From UHGV virus genome UHGV-1364441: DNA of 64,000 bases; one strand, written 5' to 3'. This stretch comes from a virus. Every line of letters starts with the position of its first letter. Position 1 is the first letter of the stretch. The position numbers and the translations under genes were made by a program. Below the pieces are notes generated by a model. The model was not told where the DNA came from. It saw only the letters and a program-made list of their open reading frames with translations, and made no database searches. Below, in pieces: positions 12,329 through 48,702 of the stretch.

Positions 12329-12820
12329 TTATTCCGCCCAGTTGTAAACAATGCGCAGGGAAGGTTTAACGACCGCCGTTACGTCTTCGGATGAGAAGTC
12401 CACGGCGTCGGAATACACTTTGCAATGAGAATATGTGCGGATCAGACCTTTATGGTTACCGCTATTCGATTCAGCCGCCGCCTGTAAGGTAATTTCCAGA
12501 TATTCTTTTCCGTATACCATCTGTTTTACAGCGGCGAGAACTGCGCCTTCGATAGTTTCCGCGCATGTGACCTGAAATTCACCAGAGTTGCGTAATGGTC
12601 CGTGCTGGTTGAATTTCATGCCACCGGGGGCGTAATCCTCCACATCTTCACGTGTCATTTCTGGTAACTGAGCTGTACGAACTAGTACAGACAGATGTTC
12701 GTAACCCTTAATGGTCATCCAATATTCAGAACCAATAAGTTTTTCGCCTGCAGCCAGGTTTTTATTAAACCGGGATTTTAGAAAGGCCATATCGGCTTTT
12801 GTATTTGCAAAACCGGACAT
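12329..12820 (-). CDS. hypothetical structural protein (tail tube candidate by size/position)
   Basis: 163-aa ORF downstream of sheath-like gene. Confidence 0.4.
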   Translation of the reverse strand: MSGFANTKADMAFLKSRFNKNLAAGEKLIGSEYWMTIKGYEHLSVLVRTAQLPEMTREDVEDYAPGGMKFNQHGPLRNSGEFQVTCAETIEGAVLAAVKQMVYGKEYLEITLQAAAESNSGNHKGLIRTYSHCKVYSDAVDFSSEDVTAVVKPSLRIVYNWAE

Positions 12821-12828
12821 AAATACTC

Positions 12829-13419
12829 CTACACAAAAACAGATGAGATATTGCTACGGTTGATCGATGTGTTACCGCTGCATTGCAGGGTTACCGTGTT
12901 ATGAGTGAAATAGCCTTCCGGTGTGCGCGGGGCGTCCAGTTGGTAACTCACGCTTTTGATAACAACGTCGGTAAGGGCTATGTTCCTACCTATGTTTAAC
13001 GTTACTGTCTCCGGGCGACGACCGAATGGCGCTACATTGTTCAGTTCCGGCGATTCCATCTTTAGCAATGCTGTAATGGCTGCGTTCACTTCAAGTTGCG
13101 CGTTCGTTGTCGCCATGAAATCAATTACCAGATTAAATTCAGGCGGTTGCTGACCTTCCCAAACAAGCATTGAGTTGAAGAGGGTTTTTGTTGTTACGCC
13201 GGTTGCGGTCTGAAGCGTATCTGCAAGAGAGCCAGCCGCAGCGCTAATACCACCAAGCAAACCTCCTACTGACTGGTTTTCAAATGGTGATTGCCACATT
13301 GATGACAGTTCTGCGGTAGATCCTTCACCGATATAACCGACGACCATATCCTCTGAAGAGAGGATATAAACCTTCATTAACGGACTTATTCCGTCAGGCA
13401 TTATCGCGCCGCAAATCAA
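12829..13419 (-). CDS. hypothetical structural protein
   Basis: 196-aa ORF in structural operon. Confidence 0.45.
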   Translation of the reverse strand: MICGAIMPDGISPLMKVYILSSEDMVVGYIGEGSTAELSSMWQSPFENQSVGGLLGGISAAAGSLADTLQTATGVTTKTLFNSMLVWEGQQPPEFNLVIDFMATTNAQLEVNAAITALLKMESPELNNVAPFGRRPETVTLNIGRNIALTDVVIKSVSYQLDAPRTPEGYFTHNTVTLQCSGNTSINRSNISSVFV

Positions 13420-13468
13420 ACGCTATTTCTCCCAGGTAGAGGCCACCTTTGCAGGCGGCCTATGTCAC

Positions 13469-14209
13469 TTACAAACCGCGTTTTTTGCGAATGCGCATTG
13501 ATTTTTTGCGGTTGATATTCGCTACGGATGTATGTGCTTTGCGGCGTGCTTTTTTCAGCGCCTGTTTTTGCAATGACGTCATGCGGCGAGGACGCGGGCG
13601 TTTACGGATGATGGTAACCTTGCCATCACGAACCACTTTTTTACGTACCGCTTCCAGCATTGCGCTATCACCACCAGCAACGGTGTAAATGGCAATAGCT
13701 GTTTCCATCATGTCGGTGTCGCTTTCGGAAAGAGCGTCATAAACACGTTCGGCAGCTGAGTCATCTTCATCGTCGATCATTTCGGTTACATCGTCCTGAT
13801 CAGCGCCAAGCGCAACAGCTGCATCAGCAAGAGCTGCGAGAGCATCGTTATAAGCATCGATTTGCTCATCGGTGAAATCGGTGTCTTCATCGATATCAGC
13901 CAGGCCAGCCATAGTGATTGCTAATGCATCAAATGAGTCAGCCTCCGGATCACCATCTTCAACCCAACCAGCAAGCATGGAAGCTGCCAGGCTGCGCATA
14001 TCACCTTGTGCTCGGGATTCAACTGCTTCCATCATCGCGGTTTCAATGTCGTCTTTGGGCTTTGGTTGAGTGTCCTTTCCTTTCTGTCCTGCGCTTTCCA
14101 GCATGGCGTTATCATTATTGTCCTGCGTGGATTTATCACCGCTTTCAAAGCAGCCAGAACCGAAAATCGCACGCATAAAAGGATCAGCAGTATAATTTTT
14201 CATATTCAA
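13469..14209 (-). CDS. strongly acidic protein with Lys/Arg-rich C-terminal tail
   Basis: 246 aa; long Asp/Glu-rich segment followed by RKRPRPRRMTSLQKQALKKARRKAHT...RKKRGL. Confidence 0.5.
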   Translation of the reverse strand: MNMKNYTADPFMRAIFGSGCFESGDKSTQDNNDNAMLESAGQKGKDTQPKPKDDIETAMMEAVESRAQGDMRSLAASMLAGWVEDGDPEADSFDALAITMAGLADIDEDTDFTDEQIDAYNDALAALADAAVALGADQDDVTEMIDDEDDSAAERVYDALSESDTDMMETAIAIYTVAGGDSAMLEAVRKKVVRDGKVTIIRKRPRPRRMTSLQKQALKKARRKAHTSVANINRKKSMRIRKKRGL

Positions 14210-14246
14210 ACCTCTCTCCCCCGCATCATTTAGCGGGGGTTATAAA

Positions 14247-15905
14247 TCAGCGCATCAGAATTGGCTTACCGACGATTCGGCGAGCTGTACCGGTCGGACA
14301 AACAGACCAGGACACCTCCCACAGATCGATGTCCTTTTGGACAACCTGAACAACATATGGATCTTCACCCTGGGACTTGTCACGTGGAGTAACCAGCGCA
14401 CCGGCTGCAACGTAACGGTCAAGCAATTCAGTCATTGCTTTCATTAGCGTTTCTTTGGTAATGCCATCCGGTTCGTGCTTAATCGCCTGAGCTACTTCAT
14501 AGAAATCTCTGGCGATGGCGTTCATCAAGGAAGACACATGCTGGAATCGCAGATAGTTGTTTTTGCTGTAAGTTGTTAAAGAGTCGTCAATGTAAACGGA
14601 CCCGTCAGCAGCAACTGAAACTGGATTAATGCGCGCAAGAACGAACGCTTCACGATCAACTGCACCGATATTTGGAATTCGGGCAATGTTCTGTCGATCA
14701 ATAATCGCGCGTGATATACCTGCCGGTGCGTAATGCCAACCACCAACATCCGGTACCAGCGCCACTCCTTTTGCCTTCGCTACGAATGCGTCGCAGCTAA
14801 TGCCATAGACGACATTCATTCCAGTGAAAGTATCTCGGCAGGAGAGCGGGAAGTAGTAACGGCTTGGTTGATGTGAGCCGCCAAAACTATGGCTTTTCGC
14901 TTCTGAAATAGCGTTTTCAGGTGTCTGGTTGCCCTTCAGGTCATAGAACATGTCTACGCGAACATCTTCAGCCAGCTTTTTGATTGCGGCTAAGGCGGAT
15001 GCGTCATAACAACCCAATGACAGCAATGCGGTGTAATTAACCTCTGAAGCTTCGAGAACCTTTAATGCTTCCAGATAGTCTGCAGCGTTAATTTCGGACA
15101 GATTTCCATCAGTACCACCTTCAAAAGCTACATCCTCAAAAATGAGTTGAGCAGCGGATGCTTCTGCATTATCTGCCAGTACGGCACCAATTCGAGTGGA
15201 CTGGCTTTCAAGCAGTGTCGGAATCCATGCTGGCTGGCCCATGTCGTTAGTGCCTTCTGGATTGAAAGACACCTGGTGGCTTTCCAGCACCTCAATGGAC
15301 CCATCGGTTTGTTTTTCTTTCAGCGTCAGCGTAAAGAGTTCGCTTTCTTCATCATCGCGAGTTAGTGATAACGTGCGATTTTGAGATGCATCACCATCTT
15401 TGATGAAGAATAATGCCTTCTCTTCACCTTTAATCTGGGGCGTCTCTTTGGGTGTGAAGGTCACTGATTGAGTCGTTGCAGTTGAAGCAACACCAACGCT
15501 TAATGTGTCACCTGGGTTTACTGTGGTTTCAGTAGGTTCAACGGAAAGTTCTTTGCTCGCCTTTGCCGCTTTTGCTTTGCCCACAACGGAAACAGAAATA
15601 CCCGGCACCTTCATGTCTTTAGCGCAAACTCGAACGACATATCCGGAGCCGCCTTTTACTGCGCGCTCCACGTGGCGATATGGTTCAAATGCCGCGCCCT
15701 GGCGAGGGTGAATCGGTGAACCTAATACGCTTTGATAAGTCGTATCGTCAACTTTCAGTACCTTACCCGGTGCGCCACGACGCGATATTACAAGCCCAGC
15801 AAAGACGGATGCGCCACCGCTGGTATTGGTGAGGGTAGCGTCAGCATTTACTGACATTACAGCAACGCCAGCTGCCTGCCCTACCGAAAAACTAATCTTA
15901 TTCAT
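14247..15905 (-). CDS. putative tail sheath protein
   Basis: 552-aa ORF adjacent to putative head gene, by analogy with P1 gene order 22 (sheath) - 23 (head); not confirmed by motif. Confidence 0.45.
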   Translation of the reverse strand: MNKISFSVGQAAGVAVMSVNADATLTNTSGGASVFAGLVISRRGAPGKVLKVDDTTYQSVLGSPIHPRQGAAFEPYRHVERAVKGGSGYVVRVCAKDMKVPGISVSVVGKAKAAKASKELSVEPTETTVNPGDTLSVGVASTATTQSVTFTPKETPQIKGEEKALFFIKDGDASQNRTLSLTRDDEESELFTLTLKEKQTDGSIEVLESHQVSFNPEGTNDMGQPAWIPTLLESQSTRIGAVLADNAEASAAQLIFEDVAFEGGTDGNLSEINAADYLEALKVLEASEVNYTALLSLGCYDASALAAIKKLAEDVRVDMFYDLKGNQTPENAISEAKSHSFGGSHQPSRYYFPLSCRDTFTGMNVVYGISCDAFVAKAKGVALVPDVGGWHYAPAGISRAIIDRQNIARIPNIGAVDREAFVLARINPVSVAADGSVYIDDSLTTYSKNNYLRFQHVSSLMNAIARDFYEVAQAIKHEPDGITKETLMKAMTELLDRYVAAGALVTPRDKSQGEDPYVVQVVQKDIDLWEVSWSVCPTGTARRIVGKPILMR

Positions 15906-15972: not shown

Positions 15973-16251
15973 TCAGGATTCGCTTACCGTGAAGTTGTCG
16001 CCTACGGTTACTTCTTTCGTAGTTGGTTCAACACTGACGGCGCTTACGCTTTTAGATGCCTCCCTAACAGTGACTGTGCACTGTGCGGTTTTATTGCCGT
16101 CATTTGTTTTGATTGTCAGCACTGCCTGCCCGGCCTTAAGAGCGGTACATGTAGTGCCATCAACCCGGACAATTTCAGGGTGATCTGACTCAACAGTGAA
16201 AGATTTGTCTGTTGCGTCAGATGGCGTGATAGTTACTTGAATGTTTGCCAT
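15973..16251 (-). CDS. Ig-like (Big_2-type) domain protein, possible decoration protein
   Basis: 92 aa; pattern TVTPSDATDKSFTVES...ALKAGQAVLTIKTNDGNKTAQCTVTV typical of bacterial Ig-like domain 2. Confidence 0.6.
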   Translation of the reverse strand: MANIQVTITPSDATDKSFTVESDHPEIVRVDGTTCTALKAGQAVLTIKTNDGNKTAQCTVTVREASKSVSAVSVEPTTKEVTVGDNFTVSES

Positions 16252-16397
16252 TTTTTCTCCTGAACGCCCCTTAATCAGGGGCGTGTTTTTGCCTTACTTC
16301 TGCTTTGTTTTTTTCTGTGCCTTTGAAGTGTTCGCGGCGATAGTTTCACCTTCATCTACGTCAAGTGACGTTGGTGATACCGACACGTTCGCCACCA

Positions 16398-18095
16398 TCA
16401 CTTTTTTTCGTTAACCTTGCCTGTCAGCATGTCGATAGCACCTTCTTTGGCACGAGTCAGACGCAGGCGGGCGAAATAATTCTCACCGTTGCGCGGGTGG
16501 ACTTCGTTGATAGCACTACCCCAGAGAGTGGTGCGGTTAACGAGAGATGGATTGGTTTCGTGCACATACGGGATTGCTGGGACCGCATCACCAGCGATCA
16601 GCCCGGCTTTACCGATGCCTTCACCGCGACCATAGAAATAAATGTCATCCAGACCTAAGTCATATCCCTGAGCCTTGAATTGCTCACACACAGGCTGCGG
16701 CACTTCGTAAATACGAATCGTGCCAAACAGGGTGCCGATGTACTGCACATACGGTGACTGAACGTAGCCCGGCGCGATTTGGAAGTGCTGTGGAGGCAAA
16801 GAACGCAGGAAGTTAGCTGCGTCACCACCTGCGAAGCCACCGCGAATACCTGTGGTCAGGGTGCGGTTTGCCATTTCCTGAGACAGGGCGTTTACTGCGT
16901 GGCGCAGGAGGCCGACCCAGGACTCATAGTTTTGAGCTTCAGGCAGAGCCACATCAAATTCACGACCATAAACGGTATGGAATACCAGGGTGCGCAGACG
17001 CATGATGTCGGTTTCATGGGAGATCCAGTTCCGCATTGCGGAGAACTGAAGTGCCGCCAATTCAAGGCCGTGTTCACGGCTTAAATCGGAAGCGGACATT
17101 ACGGTGTGTTCGGAAGCAATTACGTACTGAGACGGTCGAACTTCATACTTACGCATAGCCTGGTTGATTACCGGAATCAGGCTTGGATTGCGCTCGATGT
17201 TAATTTCGACCTGAACCGCAATTTCAGTCCCTTCTGCTGGCGCTTGAGTGAAGGTAATGTCGATGACACCAGTGTCATAAGCGACTTTTGCGGTAGCTGA
17301 GAATGCATTGCCTTTGCAGTCTTTATCATTGAAATAAAGGTTGCCATCGCCGTCGTCAACCTTGGACGGTTTGCGGTTGATAAGCAGCTTGTTATAACCA
17401 GCACGCAGCGGGCAGGACTGCCCCTCAAAATTTTGGATGTCGAACTGGAAAGTTTTGGTGCTGCCGTCCCCTTTCGTGGAAAGGGTATACAGGCGCTTCA
17501 TTTGAGAATAAACACCAGCGGATTGCATATTCAGTTCGTCACCTTGCTCGAAGGTGCCGAATTTTGTGCCTGCTACGTTGACCAGTTCATAAATATTTGA
17601 CTCATCACGATCACAAGGAACAAAAGTACAGGCATCACTGGTAGCAGCACCCAGAGAGGCAGGCAGAATTAGTGCAGCATATTGAGCAACTTTCATTACG
17701 CCGTCAGAGCTACGCATTGATTGCGCGACAGACTCAAACATTGCCTTGCCAGTGCCTACGTGTGTATCGCTGGCACATTCAGTCATCAGGCGTTCAAGTG
17801 CCATGTGTGCGTTTGCCAGGATATCGCTTGCCGGGTAGTGACCATGCTGGCGCTTGTACTCATGCAGAGACATAGCCCACCCACCAGCGATCTGACGTGC
17901 AACCTCTGGATTTACGCCTTCAAACATAGCCTCCTTCTGGATAGCTTTATCCAGGTTCTCCATCATCGCTGCCTGATCAGCAATCATATTGCCCGCAGCA
18001 TCGGTGGTCGGATCGACGGTCATAGCCATGACGCTTGCCGCCCGATTCATAATCTCGCGCTCGCGATCACGAGCTGGCTGAATGTTTTTATTCAC
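16398..18095 (-). CDS. putative major head (capsid) protein
   Basis: 565-aa ORF heading structural operon; assignment by size/position analogy to P1 gp23. Confidence 0.4.
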   Translation of the reverse strand: MNKNIQPARDREREIMNRAASVMAMTVDPTTDAAGNMIADQAAMMENLDKAIQKEAMFEGVNPEVARQIAGGWAMSLHEYKRQHGHYPASDILANAHMALERLMTECASDTHVGTGKAMFESVAQSMRSSDGVMKVAQYAALILPASLGAATSDACTFVPCDRDESNIYELVNVAGTKFGTFEQGDELNMQSAGVYSQMKRLYTLSTKGDGSTKTFQFDIQNFEGQSCPLRAGYNKLLINRKPSKVDDGDGNLYFNDKDCKGNAFSATAKVAYDTGVIDITFTQAPAEGTEIAVQVEINIERNPSLIPVINQAMRKYEVRPSQYVIASEHTVMSASDLSREHGLELAALQFSAMRNWISHETDIMRLRTLVFHTVYGREFDVALPEAQNYESWVGLLRHAVNALSQEMANRTLTTGIRGGFAGGDAANFLRSLPPQHFQIAPGYVQSPYVQYIGTLFGTIRIYEVPQPVCEQFKAQGYDLGLDDIYFYGRGEGIGKAGLIAGDAVPAIPYVHETNPSLVNRTTLWGSAINEVHPRNGENYFARLRLTRAKEGAIDMLTGKVNEKK

Positions 18096-41416: not shown

Positions 41417-42412
41417 ATGAGTGCAATAATCACACCTCATTTCGTAAACGGAGCTGGTGTGGCTGTCTTTCCGGTAGACAAGCCCACCAGTAACTACATT
41501 GGCGTAGGTCGCCGTTTCATTATCTCCCCACTTCCGCGTGAACAGGCTGAAAACACGCCAGATGGCGTAGTGGATCTGAATTATTCGCTGGTTGCCAACC
41601 AGTCTCTGAAACCGTTTTTTCAAAGCGAGCGCGTATTTAACGCGTTGGGCGGTGAAGATTCGCTTGTTCATTGGGTAAGTTCCAATATCCACGATTGCCA
41701 GGCGCACGATAAGCGCGATTGCAGCCACCAGCTAACCACTCATTTCTATAACGGCTCTGCCGTTCGCCTGTGCTGGAAGCATGATGCGGAATACATGATG
41801 AAGGGGTACAGCAAGCTGGACGACCAGTTATCCCTGAATCGTGCCAACTGGGTTATGAACTGGGCTGCGAGCGAGTTAAAACTACCGCCAGAACGCGATC
41901 TGAGCATGGTTGAACTCACTTTTTGGGCCATTCGCCGGAATCTGAAAGATGAGCTGCCAGATGAAGCCGGTCGCATTGCATTTTGTCAGCCAAAAACTGA
42001 AATCCCTACCGGTACGCTGAAAGAATCAGATATCACCTGGGAGCACAGTACCCGCGAGCTGGTGGACATAACCGCAGAGCAGATCGTCAACCTGTCTGTA
42101 GATGAGGATTCCGGCCTGCTTTATATGCGCCGACCAAAAGCGGTCCTCGGTAAAAGCCCGGCTTATCTCCGGTTTGTGGTTTCTCGTCCGTGCATCGGAT
42201 GCGGTGGCAAAGTTAACCACCCGTTCATATACCGCGCCCGCTCGTTAAACGAACACGACCGCTGGGCTGTTCCTCTTTGCGATGACTGCGCCAGAAGCGC
42301 AGAAAACGATGTCCGGGCATGGGAAAAAGCACATGGCATACGCCTTTACGTAGCCGCTAACCAGCTTTTTGACTTCGCCATCGAGCGCGGAGTGATCACT
42401 TTCAATAACTGA
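41417..42412 (+). CDS. hypothetical protein with C-terminal Cys cluster (prophage DUF968-like?)
   Basis: 331 aa; CIGCGG...HP...PLCDDCA suggests zinc-binding; family guess is weak. Confidence 0.45.
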   Translation: MSAIITPHFVNGAGVAVFPVDKPTSNYIGVGRRFIISPLPREQAENTPDGVVDLNYSLVANQSLKPFFQSERVFNALGGEDSLVHWVSSNIHDCQAHDKRDCSHQLTTHFYNGSAVRLCWKHDAEYMMKGYSKLDDQLSLNRANWVMNWAASELKLPPERDLSMVELTFWAIRRNLKDELPDEAGRIAFCQPKTEIPTGTLKESDITWEHSTRELVDITAEQIVNLSVDEDSGLLYMRRPKAVLGKSPAYLRFVVSRPCIGCGGKVNHPFIYRARSLNEHDRWAVPLCDDCARSAENDVRAWEKAHGIRLYVAANQLFDFAIERGVITFNN

Positions 42413-42428
42413 TGAGGTGGATCAAAAA

Positions 42429-43118
42429 ATGAAAGAACGCGGGATGATTTTTAACGATGAGATGGTCAGGGCCATCCTCGAAGGAGGGAAGACGCAGACT
42501 CGCCGACCTGTAAAAAATGTCAGGGCCGATAACTGCCTGGTTATCCGTAAACCGACAAAGAAACGCAATGGTGTCTATACCCACGTTATGGATGCACCTG
42601 AACATGGTTTATGCCCGTTCGGTAACGTTGGTGATCGCATATGGGTCCGTGAGGCGTGGGCGATATTAGGCAATGAGGATGGTTGCAGTGTGGACTGGAA
42701 CGACAACCTTTGTCGTGGCGATGAGAAGAACGCAGCAAGGATTTATCGGGCCAGTTGTGAGCAAAAGCCGGGTGATTACGGCTTGTGGTCGATACCCGAT
42801 GATGCCGACTGGAAACCTCACACTGTGAATGAAAAATTTGATGGCGGGTGGTGTCCATCAATTCACATGCCGCGCTGGGCATCGCGCATTCTTCTGGAAA
42901 TTACCAACGTGCGCGTTGAGCGGTTGAACGATATCAGCGAATGCGATGCAAGGGCTGAGGGCGCACCAACAGAATCGACCCTCATTGGCGATAAGCATTA
43001 CCCAAGTTTCCGTAGCCTATGGAAATCAATTTATGGCGAAGATAGTTGGAACGCTAATCCCTGGGTGTGGGTAATCGAGTTTAAGCGTATTCAGGGGGCA
43101 ACCAGTGAGCAAAATTAA
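42429..43118 (+). CDS. hypothetical prophage protein
   Basis: MKERGMIFNDEMVRAILEGGKTQTRRP N-terminus common in lambdoid prophage proteins; GAGGTGG RBS. Confidence 0.45.
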   Translation: MKERGMIFNDEMVRAILEGGKTQTRRPVKNVRADNCLVIRKPTKKRNGVYTHVMDAPEHGLCPFGNVGDRIWVREAWAILGNEDGCSVDWNDNLCRGDEKNAARIYRASCEQKPGDYGLWSIPDDADWKPHTVNEKFDGGWCPSIHMPRWASRILLEITNVRVERLNDISECDARAEGAPTESTLIGDKHYPSFRSLWKSIYGEDSWNANPWVWVIEFKRIQGATSEQN

Positions 43119-43803
43119 CTATCAAGAACTGCGCGAGGCGGCGGAACAGGCAACGCAAGATGAATGGGTAGCATATATTTTGCCGGGTCATAACGGCATT
43201 TATCCTGCGCGCACGTCTGAGGGTAGGCATTGCGGATACTTTATTGACTGGCCTGGCATTGATGGACAAAGGAATGCTGGTGCTAATGCCCGTTATATCG
43301 CGGCCATCCCACCAAAAGTTGCGCTGGCACTCCTGGGCGAAATTAAGCGCCTGGAGGACACAAATATTGATGCTATGTGCCGAATAGCACCGCTTGAGAC
43401 TAAGCTCGCGGCTCTGGTGGCAGAGAACGCCGGGCTGAAACTCGCAATGGCTGTAACTCTTGATCATGTGTCGGTCACGGATGCAGGGCAGGCCGGAGTT
43501 GCTGCAATGATTATCAACGATGCTCTGCACCACAGCGAAACCCCAGCCACCGATGCTTTTCTGGCTGAAGGGAAGACTGAAGCACGCAAGGAAGGCGCTT
43601 ATTTTGTGGCGAACAGAATGTTGGCAGCCTGGAAAGCTGGTTTTATTGATGATACTGCGAAGAACGCTGCGGATATTGCCCGGATGATCCTTACCTCTAC
43701 TGAGTTTATGACTAATGCGCCGGAAAGCCATTTTGATCGCTCATTCTCTGATGGCGTTCTCGAAGATATCGCCGAACAGCTTCGTAAAGGAGTCATCCAA
43801 TGA
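43105..43803 (+). CDS. Ea22-like protein, paralog
   Basis: GTG start; shares SKI(N/D)YQ.LREAAE N-terminus and [10 protein letters not shown] block with neighbours. Confidence 0.5.
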   Translation: MSKINYQELREAAEQATQDEWVAYILPGHNGIYPARTSEGRHCGYFIDWPGIDGQRNAGANARYIAAIPPKVALALLGEIKRLEDTNIDAMCRIAPLETKLAALVAENAGLKLAMAVTLDHVSVTDAGQAGVAAMIINDALHHSETPATDAFLAEGKTEARKEGAYFVANRMLAAWKAGFIDDTAKNAADIARMILTSTEFMTNAPESHFDRSFSDGVLEDIAEQLRKGVIQ

Positions 43804-44303
43804 GCAAGATTGACTATCAGGCACTGCGTGAGGCGGCAGAGAAAGCAACGTGGGGAGACTGGGACTCATATAAACCACACCGTGGCGCACGTGGTTATGA
43901 GGTCCGACTAAGTAGTCAGGCCATCGCGCAACACGTTCTGAAAAACAACGCTGAATTTATTGCTGCCTTTAATCCAAAGATTGCATTGGCACTACTGGAT
44001 GAACGGGAAAGGAACCAGCAATACATCAAATCCCGCGACCAGGAGAACGAGGATATTGCGCTAACGGTAGGGAAGCTGCGCGAGAAGCTGGAAGCCGCAG
44101 AGAAGCGCATTGCAGAGTTAGAAAGTGGTTCTCAGGCACAAAAGTTAGTTGAAGCAATCATTGTTGCGATAGAAAACGAACAGGAAAGGCTTTTTGATGA
44201 AGATTACCTAATGGATTCGAAAGAATGCATTGACGTAATTCGTGAAGAAGTAAAGCGATGGAATGATTCCCGTGCCGCTGGCATTCGCATCAAAGGAGAG
44301 TGA
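43800..44303 (+). CDS. Ea22-like protein, paralog
   Basis: MSKIDYQALREAAEKAT... N-terminus near-identical in pattern to 43105 gene; coiled-coil. Confidence 0.5.
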   Translation: MSKIDYQALREAAEKATWGDWDSYKPHRGARGYEVRLSSQAIAQHVLKNNAEFIAAFNPKIALALLDERERNQQYIKSRDQENEDIALTVGKLREKLEAAEKRIAELESGSQAQKLVEAIIVAIENEQERLFDEDYLMDSKECIDVIREEVKRWNDSRAAGIRIKGE

Positions 44304-44304
44304 T

Positions 44305-44499
44305 ATGGCAACCAACAACCGTAAAGCAAAGATTCTGTTAGTTCGTAGAAACGCTCCTGGCGTCTGGCAGTGGGTGAGACTCAGCAACCGACGGATGGGG
44401 TTGATGAAATATTACGGGATGATGGATTGTGGTTTTTGCAAAAAGCCCAGCGCGGCGCAAAACCGCTGGAAAAACCATTTGCGCACTAAAGGAGAGTGA
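44305..44499 (+). CDS. hypothetical small basic protein
   Basis: MATNNRKAK...; preceded by aaaggagagtgatATGgc cassette. Confidence 0.35.
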   Translation: MATNNRKAKILLVRRNAPGVWQWVRLSNRRMGLMKYYGMMDCGFCKKPSAAQNRWKNHLRTKGE

Positions 44500-44500
44500 T

Positions 44501-44710
44501 ATGGCTATTGCCGCAAGTTACACCATGCATCTCTATTGTGACTGCCGCCAGTGTACGGAAGGTGTATATCCAGTGCCAGACTTCGGTGAATATATCGGTA
44601 CGTCATGGGCTGGCTGTGCAAAAGAGGCACGTAAGGATGGCTGGCGAATAAGCAAAGACAAAACACGTGCTTTTGCGCCCGGGCATAAAGTTTTGAGGAT
44701 TAACAAATGA
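44501..44710 (+). CDS. hypothetical small Cys-rich protein
   Basis: MAIAASYTMHLYCDCRQCTEG...; preceded by the same 18-bp aaaggagagtgatatggc cassette. Confidence 0.35.
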   Translation: MAIAASYTMHLYCDCRQCTEGVYPVPDFGEYIGTSWAGCAKEARKDGWRISKDKTRAFAPGHKVLRINK

Positions 44711-45396
44711 CCACTTTAACCGACAAAGAACTGATTAAAGAAATCAAAGAGCGTATCAGCAGCCTGGACGTTCGAGACAATATTGAACGCCGGGCTTATG
44801 AAATTGCACTGGCATCGCTGGAAGCAGATCCAGTTGCTTATATTTTCAAACATCCGGCCGGGAAATTATTCTGGGCTTTAACGGATGAAAGCAATAAAGA
44901 GCAACCGGACGTTATTCCTGTTTATGCTGCCGCGCCTGCGTCGGTTGTGCCGGATAATGCATCAGAGCCTCTTGCTTATGCTTACAAAGAGCTTACGCCT
45001 GAGATTATGCGCAACCAGGCTGCCGAATCCAATCGCGGTAATGAGTGGACCGGCAATCCTGATATTGATAACGCCATCATCATGCTCGACCGCATAGATA
45101 CGCTGGAAAATTGCGATGATGACCGTATTGAGGCTGTTAAGGCTGTTTTGCGTAGACTGGCTGGCAACTCTCCGGTAACTCCGGATGGTTGGATAAGCTG
45201 TAGTGAGCGAATGCCGGATAGCAAAACAGCCGTTCTTGTTGCCAGGGAGTTTGACAGGAAAGGTGACTGGCGAATGAAATGGGCGACTTACATCCCGGGG
45301 CATCCTGACGCTAATGATGGGTGGATAATTCCAGGTGCGTCGTGGATACCATCACACTGGATGCCGCTACCAGAACCGCCGCAGGAGGCGAAATGA
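44707..45396 (+). CDS. DUF551-domain prophage protein
   Basis: C-terminal DGWISCSERMPD...WMPLPEPP pattern typical of DUF551. Confidence 0.5.
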   Translation: MTTLTDKELIKEIKERISSLDVRDNIERRAYEIALASLEADPVAYIFKHPAGKLFWALTDESNKEQPDVIPVYAAAPASVVPDNASEPLAYAYKELTPEIMRNQAAESNRGNEWTGNPDIDNAIIMLDRIDTLENCDDDRIEAVKAVLRRLAGNSPVTPDGWISCSERMPDSKTAVLVAREFDRKGDWRMKWATYIPGHPDANDGWIIPGASWIPSHWMPLPEPPQEAK

Positions 45397-45653
45397 TGGA
45401 TGTAAAAGAGAAGGTTTTGCAGGTGATGCGTTCCCGGGCTGCCCTGCAAGATAAAGCTCTCGGCGGGGAATATCCATTCAGGATGGCAACCTGGAATTTG
45501 CGGTTGGCAATGGAGAAGGAATTTCCTGATGAAGAATGGCGCTCGGCAGATTTGCGCAAAATTCTTATGGAGCTGGCTAAAGACGGAACAGTATCCAAAG
45601 ATACCCATGCCAGCCGGATTGGTCAGGCGGTATGGAGACTGGAGGTGAGGTAA
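45393..45653 (+). CDS. hypothetical small protein
   Basis: MMDVKEKVLQ... with GGAGG RBS (ORF track starts 45321). Confidence 0.4.
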   Translation: MMDVKEKVLQVMRSRAALQDKALGGEYPFRMATWNLRLAMEKEFPDEEWRSADLRKILMELAKDGTVSKDTHASRIGQAVWRLEVR

Positions 45654-45934
45654 TGGCTAACCTGCAACTTGCCGTCAAAGGTGAATACTTCGATGACATG
45701 ATTCGCGGGGAGAAAACGGAAGAGTATCGCCTGTGTAATGGCTACTGGAATAAGCGAATCATGTTCCGGGAATATGACCGCCTGATTATCACAAAGGGAT
45801 ATCCGAAGCGCGACGATTCCAGTCGCAGAATAGACGTCCCGTATAACGGATATGAAATCAAGACAATCACACATCCGCACTTCGGTGATAAACCGGTAAA
45901 GGTGTACGCGATAAAGGTGAATATCAATGGCTAA
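45653..45934 (+). CDS. hypothetical small protein
   Basis: MANLQLAVKGEYFDDMIRGEKTEEYR...; RBS GGTGAGG. Confidence 0.4.
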   Translation: MANLQLAVKGEYFDDMIRGEKTEEYRLCNGYWNKRIMFREYDRLIITKGYPKRDDSSRRIDVPYNGYEIKTITHPHFGDKPVKVYAIKVNING

Positions 45935-46379
45935 ATTTCAAAGAGCTATTATTTTTCTGGCTATGTTATCAGCCAGTCATTTATCCCACGCGTCAGTTAT
46001 TGCCGCTGGAGCGGCGGCAACAGCGGCGGCAACAGCGGCGGCAACAGCAGCGGCAACAGCAGCGACCACGGCGGCAGTAAATGCTTCTATCGCCAGCGAG
46101 CAAGCGCGGCGTGCTGCAACCAATGCTTCCGCAAACACCACCACGGTATCAGTCACACAATCAAAACCGAATATAGGCTTTGTTACTTGCGGAAAGAGGA
46201 ATAGCGAAATGGTTGGTTCTCTTGGTTGTGTAATGTGGCAAGAGGACGATAGACCTGAAATCCCGTGGAACTCATGGCCTGGTTACATTCTTGGTAAGAA
46301 GATACCCACCAGCTATGAAGTAAATGCTATTTCATTCGACCAATATAACGGTGTTGCAACGGTGTATTTTCTGTATTAA
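45927..46379 (+). CDS. secreted protein with Ala/Thr repeat tract
   Basis: Signal peptide then AAATAAATAAATAAATAATTAA encoded by tandem 9-bp gcggcggca/acagcggcg repeats. Confidence 0.5.
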   Translation: MAKFQRAIIFLAMLSASHLSHASVIAAGAAATAAATAAATAAATAATTAAVNASIASEQARRAATNASANTTTVSVTQSKPNIGFVTCGKRNSEMVGSLGCVMWQEDDRPEIPWNSWPGYILGKKIPTSYEVNAISFDQYNGVATVYFLY

Positions 46380-46391
46380 CACGGAGTAATT

Positions 46392-46685
46392 ATGTGGCGT
46401 GGTAATAGTCATGGCAGAAGCCAGATGATACTTACCGAATATACGTTAGACCACAAAACCAATAAATCACGCTCAGTATATTTGCTTCGGCACAATAGCC
46501 GCGTAAGGAATACCGTGCTGGAGCAAAATCTGACCGTTGAAATGGATAATTTTGGGAACTTCAAGCCAACAATAGCGCTTGATGATTTTCCGCGTGGTTT
46601 AAGCGAAAGAGAAGCAATGCTTAAATTAGCAGAATGGCTACAGAGATTAAGTATTGCTATTGAAGATAACTGGAGCAATCCGTAA
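46392..46685 (+). CDS. hypothetical protein
   Basis: 97-aa ORF. Confidence 0.4.
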   Translation: MWRGNSHGRSQMILTEYTLDHKTNKSRSVYLLRHNSRVRNTVLEQNLTVEMDNFGNFKPTIALDDFPRGLSEREAMLKLAEWLQRLSIAIEDNWSNP

Positions 46686-46925
46686 TGAAAAATAAAAAGT
46701 TTTGGTCTACGTTTTTATTTGTCTGTGTTTGTGGCTTTTTTGTTGCTTTAGCTGGTGGCGTAGAATGGGGAACGGAGAACTGCGGCGTAATGGTTGGTGA
46801 CACCTTATTACTCGCGGGCATGTTAGCTTTTATTCGTTCATGAGAAAGATTCAAACCACCAGCAATATTATTACCCCTGTCGTTACGGCAGGGGGCTGCA
46901 ACACTGTGTAATTGAGTAATTTTAT

Positions 46926-47300
46926 ATGATGACATTCAAACATTTTCTTGACCGTCCATTATGGGCGGCAGCCGCAGGCTATGACTTTAATTATATGGAT
47001 TGCATGTCTTATACCGCCAATGCATACGACCATTCCTTCAGTCTGCTGTTTAATTCTTTAAGAATATTGCCGCAAACAGAAGTTGGAGAGCTTCATTTAT
47101 GGCTATTGGGCTTTATCGCGGCTGGAGTTGGTATTGCTGTATGGCCTTTTATTTTCTGGCTGGTGGCTGTTGTAGTGTGGTTTAAGTGCAAGGCATACCG
47201 GAATAAGTATTTCTTAGGTGATGGAATGACTGATATTGCCAAAAGGAACATTGAAAATTGGACCAAAGAATGCGAAAAGAAATGGAGCAACAAGAAATGA
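46926..47300 (+). CDS. membrane protein
   Basis: Hydrophobic stretch LWLLGFIAAGVGIAVWPFIFWLVAVVVWF. Confidence 0.45.
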   Translation: MMTFKHFLDRPLWAAAAGYDFNYMDCMSYTANAYDHSFSLLFNSLRILPQTEVGELHLWLLGFIAAGVGIAVWPFIFWLVAVVVWFKCKAYRNKYFLGDGMTDIAKRNIENWTKECEKKWSNKK

Positions 47301-48013
47301 CCAGAATCACTAAATTGCGCATATCAGAGATTATTGCACGCATCGAAATGTATGGACACGGTGCTGGATATACGGCAGATGAGGTGTTGGAGCTTGCCAA
47401 AATAGCGTTAGCAACCTGCAAGGATGGTGAAACCATAAAGCTGATTGACTTGTTGGTGCAGGAGCTGCCAAAGCGTGGAGGGTGGCCTGATGATGTGCTC
47501 GATTGTCGCATGGTTAGAGAGGACGAGTATGAACCATCATATGGCCTCTTTGCTTTTGGCTCTGACCCAGCAAAAAGCCTGCGAGGACGCCATTTTTGCC
47601 TTGAGGTCAGACTCCCGATAAGTAACCTTGATCGTGAGGAATACACGGAAATAATTTCGCGCAAACAATACGAAGAGGCTCTAGAAGCATCCAGTAAGTT
47701 AAATTTTGAGCAATGGCTGGAACAGCAACGCGGGAAAATCGATGTGGACTGTGGTTGTGTGTCCACTGAAACATTCATGCACTGGCTGCGGGTAGCTTAC
47801 GAGGCTGGCAACCATCCGGATTTTCCGGATAGTTCCCAACAATCGCCCAAGAAAAGCGTAAAAACCACTCTGGAAAGAGGCTATCTTGAGGCCGCATTAA
47901 AGATTAAGCCGGGCCATACGCTAGGCGTCATTGATGCCATGTTGGTTCATGAAATGGCGAAGGCTTTATTGCCGCTGGTGGCTGATAAAATTCCGAATAA
48001 AGCCGATATCTGA
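47297..48013 (+). CDS. hypothetical protein
   Basis: Start MTRITKL by ATGA coupling (ORF track 47258). Confidence 0.45.
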   Translation: MTRITKLRISEIIARIEMYGHGAGYTADEVLELAKIALATCKDGETIKLIDLLVQELPKRGGWPDDVLDCRMVREDEYEPSYGLFAFGSDPAKSLRGRHFCLEVRLPISNLDREEYTEIISRKQYEEALEASSKLNFEQWLEQQRGKIDVDCGCVSTETFMHWLRVAYEAGNHPDFPDSSQQSPKKSVKTTLERGYLEAALKIKPGHTLGVIDAMLVHEMAKALLPLVADKIPNKADI

Positions 48014-48052
48014 TCACCATGCTAAAATCCCCTCAATTCACAGAGGGGATTT

Positions 48053-48325
48053 TTGTATATGTTGCATAGAGTTTTATGGAAAAGCGTTATTGTCGGCGCG
48101 ATCTTGGCTATGTCTGGGTGTGCTATGGTGCAATACAATGACGGAGAAAAGGTTAGCATCCAGTCAGATGGTTGGTATGGCCTGGATAGCCTGCAAAAAA
48201 CAGCGGATAAAGCCTGCCAGCAATACGGAAAGTCTAAAGCCGTATATCAGCATAGTGCTAACGCTAATCCTCATCTTGCGCCCGGAACAGGCGTTCAGAA
48301 TACCATCTGGAAATGTGAGCCTTAA
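48053..48325 (+). CDS. lipoprotein
   Basis: Signal peptide with lipobox (AILAMSGC). Confidence 0.5.
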
Positions 48326-48327
48326 AT

Positions 48328-48579
48328 ATGAGCGACTGGAATATTGCAGCTAAAAGTCAGGAAGAACGGGATAAGGTTAACGTTGATCTGGCTGCCAGCG
48401 GTGTGGCGTACAAAGAGCGATTGAACATACCTGTCATAGCTGAACAGGTAGCCCGCGAGCAACCAGAGAATCTGCGCACCTATTTCATGGAACGGCTACG
48501 GCACTACCGGCAGTTAAGCCTCCAGTTGCCAAAAGGGAGCGATCCGGTGTATCAGAACGAGGATGCACCAAAAAAATAA
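48328..48579 (+). CDS. hypothetical protein
   Basis: 83-aa ORF. Confidence 0.4.
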
Positions 48580-48702
48580 CGGCAAGATGGGGGAGAAATG
48601 TGATTAGCCCCCAGCGTGGCGCGCCTACAAACCCAGCTTTCACAAACTATGCCTTTTCAATGTATACTGTATGAATAAACAGTATCATTAAGGTAAAACG
48701 CT

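Follow-up and report, generated by a model that had tools for sequence, protein, structure and literature searches.

The window analyzed here, a stretch of 64,000 nucleotides from the viral genome UHGV-1364441, represents a D6-like plasmid prophage belonging to the P1 family. On the minus strand, in the late structural operon, it encodes a homologue of P1 gene 21, whose product (gp21) has been annotated as a part of the tail. We found that gp21 carries three motifs of the type at which the capsid protein of P1 is cut, and that these motifs change together with the capsid site across phage lineages. This suggests that gp21 is probably a substrate of the prohead protease Pro, residing inside the prohead and not in the baseplate or the tail tube. 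Maturation proteases such as Pro are expected to act inside the assembled prohead, and hence a gp21 that is cut by Pro would have to be a prohead-internal protein.

Prohead protease motifs in gp21, the capsid protein, DarA, and Pro

The capsid protein of P1, gp23, is cut between E120 and S121, in KAMLE↓SVAAEM, as determined by Edman sequencing (PMC9024508; the arrow marks the bond that is cut), and we checked this site against the sequence. The D6-type gp21 encoded in the window contains three motifs of the form A-M-(L/M/F)-E↓(S/A): AMLE↓S at residues 33-37, AMME↓A at 56-60, and AMLE↓A at 181-185. In the proteome of phage D6 (111 proteins, 26,875 amino acids), the pattern AM[LFM]E[SAG] is found eight times, compared with 0.14 matches expected from shuffled sequences. 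All eight fall into four proteins, with three matches in Pro, one in DarA, one in the capsid protein, at the homologue of the mapped site, and three in gp21. The DarA match comprises residues 62-66 and coincides with the start of the Pfam domain DarA_N; this position agrees with the absence of residues 1-69 of P1 DarA in cryo-electron microscopy (cryo-EM) (PMC12810830). Among the open frames of the window, translated in all six frames, only gene 21 (three copies) and the delta domain of the capsid protein (two copies) contain the motif. Thus, gp21 apart, the motif is restricted to known Pro substrates.

The three gp21 sites share one logo, with A or P at P4, M at P3, L, F, or M at P2, E at P1, and S or A at P1'. 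At the first site, P2 is L, M, or F and P1' is S or N. In the alignment of 72 family members, the sites form conserved islands (column identity 0.73-0.80) amid a variable N-terminus (0.25-0.30).

To follow the motif across the family, we used 493 representatives of clusters at 50% identity, obtained by an exhaustive profile search at E ≤ 0.001. The residue before the third site, at the junction of the acidic and basic parts of the protein, is glutamate in most of the family, aspartate in many members, and serine in a few. As the column of the second site is often shifted by one residue in the large alignment, N-terminal motifs were counted instead. Motifs consisting of two hydrophobic residues and glutamate were present in the N-terminal part of 79 of the 94 E-type proteins, while four had D motifs. 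Among 46 D-type proteins, 29 had D motifs and one had an E motif, and four of the five S-type proteins had S motifs. Overall, the junction residue and the N-terminal motifs are of one type in 108 of 145 representatives, while 20,000 permutations gave a mean of 59.6 and a maximum of 78. No comparable bias was seen in the acidic domain between the sites. A neighbour-joining tree built without the motif columns requires about 11 changes of type, and therefore the correspondence does not reflect one single inherited event.

The capsid protein follows the same pattern. Three D-type phage contigs with the P1-like gene order (L012-L014) have AMLD↓S, KMLD↓S, or KMLD↓A at the capsid site, and PMFD↓A/S at the second delta-domain site. 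Two S-type contigs (L015 and L016) have LLLS↓S and MLLS↓A, together with PLYS↓S and IFS↓S. S-type proteins used as queries against viral contigs gave no matches, and the S-type context was taken from contigs found to encode S-type proteins and from the Moritella plasmid pMR24a. In this complete S-type plasmid, [ML]LS[SA] occurs nine times with 2.4 matches expected: three in Pro, one in DarA, one at capsid position 120, two in gp21, one in DarB, and one in an unrelated reverse transcriptase. The third site of its gp21, ILS↓A, fits only a wider pattern. The DarA match is at the homologous position, DDHLLS↓AITTR compared with DEAMFE↓SITTTR in D6, and the E- and D-type motifs are not enriched in pMR24a. 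Hence, the E, D, and S types switch jointly in gp21 and the capsid protein and, in one complete genome, in Pro and DarA as well. That four proteins change the same residue together in several lineages points to shared protease specificity, not to shared descent, and argues that gp21 is cut by the same enzyme.

Domain structure, family, and genomic context of gene 21

The minus-strand open reading frame (ORF) spans positions 13469-14209 of the window. Translation probably begins with the ATG at 14203, which lies two codons within the TTG at 14209 and is preceded by a GGAGAGAGG ribosome-binding site; this yields a protein of 244 amino acids, in agreement with the annotation of D6_47 in phage D6. 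The region is 99.7% identical to D6 at the nucleotide level and its product is 100% identical to D6_47, which is labelled "putative baseplate protein, similar to P1 gene 21". The identity to P1 gp21 is about 41-44%. The protein belongs to PHROG 1053 (E 3e-85), a family with no assigned function.

The first-pass annotation had described this product as a highly acidic protein with a polybasic tail inside the structural operon, and the charge distribution bears this out. Residues 1-184 contain 46 acidic (D/E) and 10 basic (K/R) residues (net charge -36, isoelectric point (pI) 4.05), while residues 185-244 contain one acidic and 25 basic residues (net +24). The best-split charge score is 60, compared with a mean of 15 in 5000 shuffled sequences (standard deviation 5.2, maximum 48). 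The split is retained in all 72 aligned family members, with net charges of -26 to -40 for the N-terminal part and +17 to +29 for the C-terminal part, and a similar split is seen in sampled members of the 50%-identity representatives.

The AlphaFold2 model of gp21 has a mean confidence (predicted local distance difference test, pLDDT) of 78.7. It comprises a helical bundle at residues 50-176, with pLDDT mostly above 90 at residues 71-160 and 80-88 before them, and a basic module formed by a beta-hairpin (187-200) and two helices (210-222 and 226-242). Sites 1 and 3 are in disordered segments; in particular, site 3 occupies a linker with pLDDT below 50 between the bundle and the basic module. 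The module is among the best-conserved parts of gp21 (column identity 0.73). The segment preceding site 1 is a possible propeptide or capsid-targeting segment. Neither whole gp21 nor the basic module had a match in Pfam, and profiles built from the full family and from the module yielded nothing meaningful when searched against PDB sequences. A Foldseek search of the model against PDB and BFVD produced no hits at E ≤ 0.001; the best match was the homologue from phage SP-15, a member of the same family. In these searches, gp21 showed no sequence or fold homology to known prohead-internal proteins.

Gene 21 is a conserved, syntenic core gene of the structural operon, present in at least 493 clusters at 50% identity. 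Its basic module is 57% identical to that of gp64 of Listeria phage LIS04 (also PHROG 1053, E 3e-22), although the capsid proteins of the two phages are far diverged. Distant relatives keep the basic module, next to which the acidic part has always given way to unrelated domains or to poly-D/E runs that differ in length. The protease of these relatives is long and of the T4 type, fused to what looks like a scaffold region with many [IL]xE↓S sites.

The module is also found in Firmicutes-type phages and in a T4-like metagenomic phage (LIS04 gp64, positions 3419-4444 of L004; P0124-P0128 [L009]). The proteins concerned are longer, and the module lies in their interior, flanked by an acidic part on either side or following a poly-D/E run of variable length. 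Ahead of it stands [LI]-E-E and, in LIS04, IKE↓S comes after it; judging from their sequence, these could possibly be T4-type protease sites on both sides of the module.

Table 1. Features of gene 21 and of the capsid protein gene in the window (sites and domains of gp21 are given by residue; all coordinates refer to the window).
Feature	Coordinates	Strand	Properties
Coding sequence, P1 gene 21 homologue (D6_47)	13469..14203	-	244 amino acids and stop codon, 26.7 kDa, pI 4.7
Residues 1-36, variable disordered N-terminal piece ending at site 1	14096..14203	-	pLDDT <50 at 1-5 and 17-46; column identity 0.30, compared with 0.80 at the motif
Putative prohead protease site 1, A33-M-L-E36↓S37	14093..14107	-	same residues as AMLE↓S, the mapped site of the P1 capsid protein; E36 invariant in 72 sequences
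Putative prohead protease site 2, A56-M-M-E59↓A60	14024..14038	-	E59 >90% conserved; start of the acidic helical domain
Acidic helical domain, residues 60-184	13652..14026	-	125 amino acids, net -32, 13.1 kDa
Putative prohead protease site 3, A181-M-L-E184↓A185	13649..13663	-	exact acidic/basic junction; E184 invariant in 72 sequences
Conserved polybasic module, residues 185-244	13472..13651	-	60 amino acids, net +24, 7.1 kDa, pI 12
Major capsid protein gene (P1 gene 23 homologue)	16398..18095	-	PHROG 1014, D6_51; N-terminal delta domain bears the reference motifs
Capsid maturation site AMFE↓S, residues 118-122	17730..17744	-	aligns with P1 gp23 E120↓S121 (Edman sequencing, PMC9024508)
Second capsid delta-domain motif AMFE↓G	17916..17930	-	aligns with PMFD↓A/S of D-type phages and with PLYS↓S or IFS↓S of S-type phages

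The late structural operon of the window comprises the genes for the capsid protein (gene 23), small Ig-like ORFs, the sheath (22, 14247-15905), gene 21, pmgG (12829-13401), and bplB (12329-12820), which encodes the tube. The gene order around gene 21 is the same in P1. Scanning the coding strand around gene 21, we found no intrinsic terminator and no sigma-70 promoter. Gene 21 is flanked by two GC-rich hairpins lacking a T-run: CCCCCGC-TAAATGAT-GCGGGGG at 14220-14241 on the minus strand, just upstream of the ribosome-binding site, and GGCCGCC-TGCAAAG-GTGGCC at approximately 13443-13462, also on the minus strand and just past the stop codon. They might have a role in relative expression or mRNA stability inside the operon.

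The capsid gene ends in AACGAAAAAAAGTGA, with seven A's just ahead of the stop codon, and a shifted frame runs on for 35 codons (orf50 in D6), beginning VSVSPTSLDVDEGETI; this region spans 16250-16420 on the minus strand. It is followed by a separate 92-residue ORF with a Big_2 Ig-like domain (Pfam E 2.6e-8) at 15973-16251 on the minus strand. Together, they look like an Ig-like extension that is, or once was, appended to the capsid protein by frameshifting.

The window is not D6 itself. It is a mosaic relative, with megablast blocks 85-97.6% identical to D6 and unmatched stretches in between, e.g. at ca. 42400-48600. Four tRNA genes are located at 60324-61518 on the minus strand, Met(cat), Ser(tga), Thr(tgt), and Arg(tct); the set differs from the Ser, Thr, and Asn genes annotated there in D6. 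PmgS of D6 (L005, 9085-10308; ca. 62750-63980 in the window) is annotated as "putative prohead scaffolding protein" and has weak coiled-coil-like Pfam matches, and the scan of the D6 proteome found no protease motif in it. The pmgS gene is presumably among the 29 genes knocked out in P1 and, if so, dispensable. Five of the 29 knockouts are essential, namely those of pmgA, B, C, G, and R (PMC9024508). In pMR24a, an S-type P1-like plasmid prophage, a diversity-generating retroelement (L017, 3494-5115), consisting of Avd and a reverse transcriptase, lies two genes downstream of a homologue of tail fibre protein S.

The tail annotation and other possible roles of gp21

Several observations weigh against a prohead role of gp21. 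The P1 record names the gene 21 product "baseplate or tail tube", and derived records say "tail tube protein". This label reportedly goes back to tailless amber mutants, the main point against our reading. Moreover, the neighbours of gene 21 in every P1-like relative examined are the genes for the sheath, the tube-linking protein, and the tube. The gp21 of P1 itself has looser motifs (LME↓S, ILE↓G, ILE↓A, and LTE↓A), and the proteome enrichment is weaker, with 18 matches and 9.9 expected. Site 2 is within a confidently predicted helix (pLDDT ~80-88) and, by the model, seems to be the least certain of the three gp21 sites. The basic module has no match to known DNA-binding domains in Pfam or PDB. 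Finally, P1 and T5-type capsids with delta domains are thought to need no separate core protein (PMC9024508, PMC12810830).

Still, the annotation of gp21 as a baseplate or tail part is probably wrong, as far as can be judged from sequence data. The tube of P1 is formed by BplB (PMC10304247), its tube initiator is Tub, and its tube-linking protein is PmgG (PMC12810830); all three are encoded by genes separate from gene 21. We found no match of gp21 to a tube or baseplate fold or family. Among the 23 virion proteins identified with liquid chromatography-tandem mass spectrometry (LC-MS/MS), gp21 (ORF 56) is missing, while its neighbours ORF 54, 55, 57, and 58 are present (PMC9024508, Table 1), and it is not among the modelled or listed components, baseplate included, in the whole-virion cryo-EM study of P1 (PMC12810830). 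Neither paper discusses it. At the same time, this absence is no argument against cleavage of gp21 by Pro, because the processed protein would be nearly invisible to tryptic mass spectrometry: with the predicted processing of P1 gp21, the tryptic peptides of usable length would all be cut apart, and the others would be 102 residues long or have at most seven residues.

The old tail phenotype could be accounted for by polarity. As no promoter is annotated in the P1 record between the LP23 and pmgF promoters, a nonsense mutation in gene 21 is possibly polar on pmgG and bplB, both of which are needed for tails (PMC9024508, PMC10304247). Alternatively, the classical "21" alleles may be located in pmgG or bplB.

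A related possibility is that gp21 is a tail or baseplate assembly factor, e.g. a chaperone of the tube or the tape measure, that does not stay in the virion and in which the protease-like motifs serve some other purpose. This is consistent with the GenBank note, with the fixed position of the gene right after the sheath gene and before pmgG and bplB, and, as tail chaperones are typically acidic and absent from virions, with the charge of gp21 and its absence from the virion lists. However, such a role cannot explain why, in three specificity classes, the motifs switch type jointly with those of the capsid protein, DarA, and Pro. Pro is expected to act only inside proheads. Heads and tails assemble separately (PMC9024508). 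In addition, gp21 lacks a tube fold, its model is helical, and it has no match to a tail PHROG or Pfam family; the tailless phenotype, as noted, is explicable by polarity. All this makes a tail assembly factor quite improbable. We also considered a tail chaperone of the lambda G/GT type and rejected it, as no overlapping minus-strand ORF of at least 50 amino acids could serve as the frameshift partner. For such a chaperone gene, a place just upstream of the tape measure gene would be expected; that gene, sit, is located elsewhere, with pmgB ahead of it.

The main rival, and a live one, is a true scaffold or core protein that leaves the capsid, an outcome that the first-pass annotation itself had set against its own proposal. 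Such a protein would help to build the prohead, with the helix-turn-helix of its basic C-terminus attached to the inside of the capsid shell or to the delta domains. Pro would clip the junction to free the body, in the manner of the M-site of the herpesvirus scaffold, and all pieces would exit before DNA entry. The protease-site evidence applies equally to this scenario. Moreover, the acidic helical body and the basic helical C-terminus of the AlphaFold2 model recall the scaffolds of P22 and herpesviruses. Other observations are harder to reconcile with a scaffold. A charge of +24 in 60 residues is far above that of known coat-binding domains, and the delta domains that it would bind are only weakly acidic here (-1 to -5). 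The 57% identity of the module between P1-like and SP-15-like phages, whose capsids are far diverged, suggests an invariant ligand such as DNA, and not a co-evolving shell. A scaffold that leaves would be consistent with the lack of gp21 in virions (PMC9024508, PMC12810830), and P1 is said to have no separate scaffold, leaving an open slot for one (PMC9024508). On the other hand, a main scaffold role seems unnecessary, because distant carriers of the module already have the protease fused to an apparent scaffold region and because the capsid protein of the P1 type has a delta domain (PMC12810830). On this evidence we regard a scaffold as unlikely, though deserving more weight than the other alternatives.

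The first-pass annotation had proposed that the product is a DNA-mimic anti-restriction protein or an internal virion protein co-injected with DNA. The head-internal part of this idea gains support from the three conserved prohead protease motifs that co-vary with the capsid site; the anti-restriction part does not. The acidic domain, with a net charge of -32 in 125 amino acids, could in principle mimic DNA and be packaged and injected against restriction enzymes or RecBCD, as an additional Dar-type function. The protein is probably head-internal, and P1 is known to package anti-restriction proteins (PMC9024508, PMC12810830). However, we found no similarity to ArdA, Ocr, or solved DNA mimics, either in sequence (Pfam, PDB) or in fold, as the Foldseek comparison of the AlphaFold2 model returned no known DNA mimic. 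Unlike typical accessory anti-defence genes, gene 21 behaves as a conserved syntenic core gene, and the swapping of the acidic part in relatives that keep the module indicates that selection acts mainly on the basic part. We therefore rejected this candidate and consider a DNA-mimic function very improbable.

Proposed maturation of gp21 and its implications

We suggest the following sequence of events. The gp21 precursor would be made from the late operon and built into the prohead alongside the capsid protein, DarA, and Pro. Pro would then cleave it after E36 and E184 and probably also after E59. The cut at E184 would part the acidic helical domain from the folded polybasic module. Before that, the acidic body would act as an anionic propiece that neutralises the polycation in the cytoplasm and perhaps aids targeting. 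After cleavage, the basic module may bind the incoming DNA and remain in the head, while the acidic pieces would leave or be displaced. We view the basic module as the functional, DNA-binding product because it is strongly conserved between the window protein and LIS04 despite the diverged capsids, which suggests an unchanging partner. The acidic body is viewed as a charge-masking propiece because it is replaced by other domains or poly-D/E runs in distant relatives that retain the module. Taken as a whole, a Pro substrate that is cut in the prohead, with masking and DNA binding as the preferred sequel, is on balance the explanation we favour. The complete mechanism, with DNA binding by the basic module, is more tentative and has somewhat less than an even chance of being correct in all its steps; binding of DNA and retention of the basic peptide in the virion are less firmly indicated than cleavage.

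Capsid-internal proteins processed by a protease are already known, although the gene 21 family has not been recognised among them and its layout of an acidic mask and a basic peptide is unusual. The closest parallels are found in phage T4 and in DarA of P1. T4 has internal proteins (IPs) that are basic, and its cleavage motif, a hydrophobic residue, any residue, Glu, and then a small residue, is similar to the one described here. The prohead core and internal proteins of T4 (gp22, gp67, gp68, IPI-III, and Alt) assemble within the prohead and are cleaved by the gp21 protease of T4. Some of them are acidic and become degraded, while the IPs, once trimmed, are retained and then injected together with the DNA (PMC9958956). 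Between these proteins and gp21 of the P1 family, no homology in sequence or fold was detected. Unlike them, gp21 combines the acidic and basic parts in one polypeptide that would be split by the protease, and its gene lies among tail genes and not beside the protease gene. DarA is from the same phage family as gp21, lies inside the head, and is trimmed by Pro; it has one copy of the motif, in the N-terminal region missing in cryo-EM (PMC12810830), and this copy co-varies in the S-type plasmid. However, DarA is a large protein bound to the capsid wall, with DarA_N and DarA_C domains, while gp21 is small and has three sites and a bipartite charge.

Similar designs exist outside tailed phages. 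In adenovirus pre-VII and pre-mu and in defensins, a polycationic peptide that binds nucleic acid or membranes is made as a precursor, its charge is balanced by an anionic propiece, and a dedicated protease releases it at the place of use. The proteins and proteases are unrelated to gp21 and Pro, and the similarity would be one of design only. In the P22 scaffold gp8, with its coat-binding C-terminal helix-turn-helix, and in the herpesvirus scaffolds, an acidic body made of helices is joined to a C-terminus that is helical and basic; in the latter, an assemblin-type protease cuts near the C-terminus and removes the tail. By contrast, gp21 has a much higher charge density, its module has been conserved in phages whose capsid proteins differ greatly, and these phages already have delta domains or protease-scaffold fusions. 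Ocr and ArdA resemble gp21 in being, or containing, a small and very acidic domain; gp21 differs in being encoded by a core gene of the late structural operon and in its fused polybasic module, and has no sequence or fold match to them.

More speculatively, the gene 21 family could represent widespread and so far unrecognised phage "pro-polycations". In these, a folded, masked, histone-like peptide of 60 residues with a charge of +24 would be unmasked by the maturation protease, bind the packaged genome, and perhaps travel with it to the next host. If real, this combination of an acidic mask and a basic peptide would be a simple mechanism not previously described in tailed phages, where it would parallel protein VII and mu of adenovirus.

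P1 is a classic model phage, and gene 21 is one of its classical numbered genes, which has been labelled tail or baseplate for decades, with the label spreading to its relatives. If gp21 is a Pro substrate, moving it to the capsid interior would change the assembly map of P1 and would explain why proteomics and whole-virion cryo-EM missed it. It also bears on whether P1 has core proteins beyond the capsid delta domain and DarA/Hdf. Moreover, the gene 21 family provides a natural record of how the specificity of a maturation protease switches, from E to D to S, with its substrates changing jointly, and the joint switching of sites across four proteins offers a ready way to predict protease substrates in uncharacterised phages.
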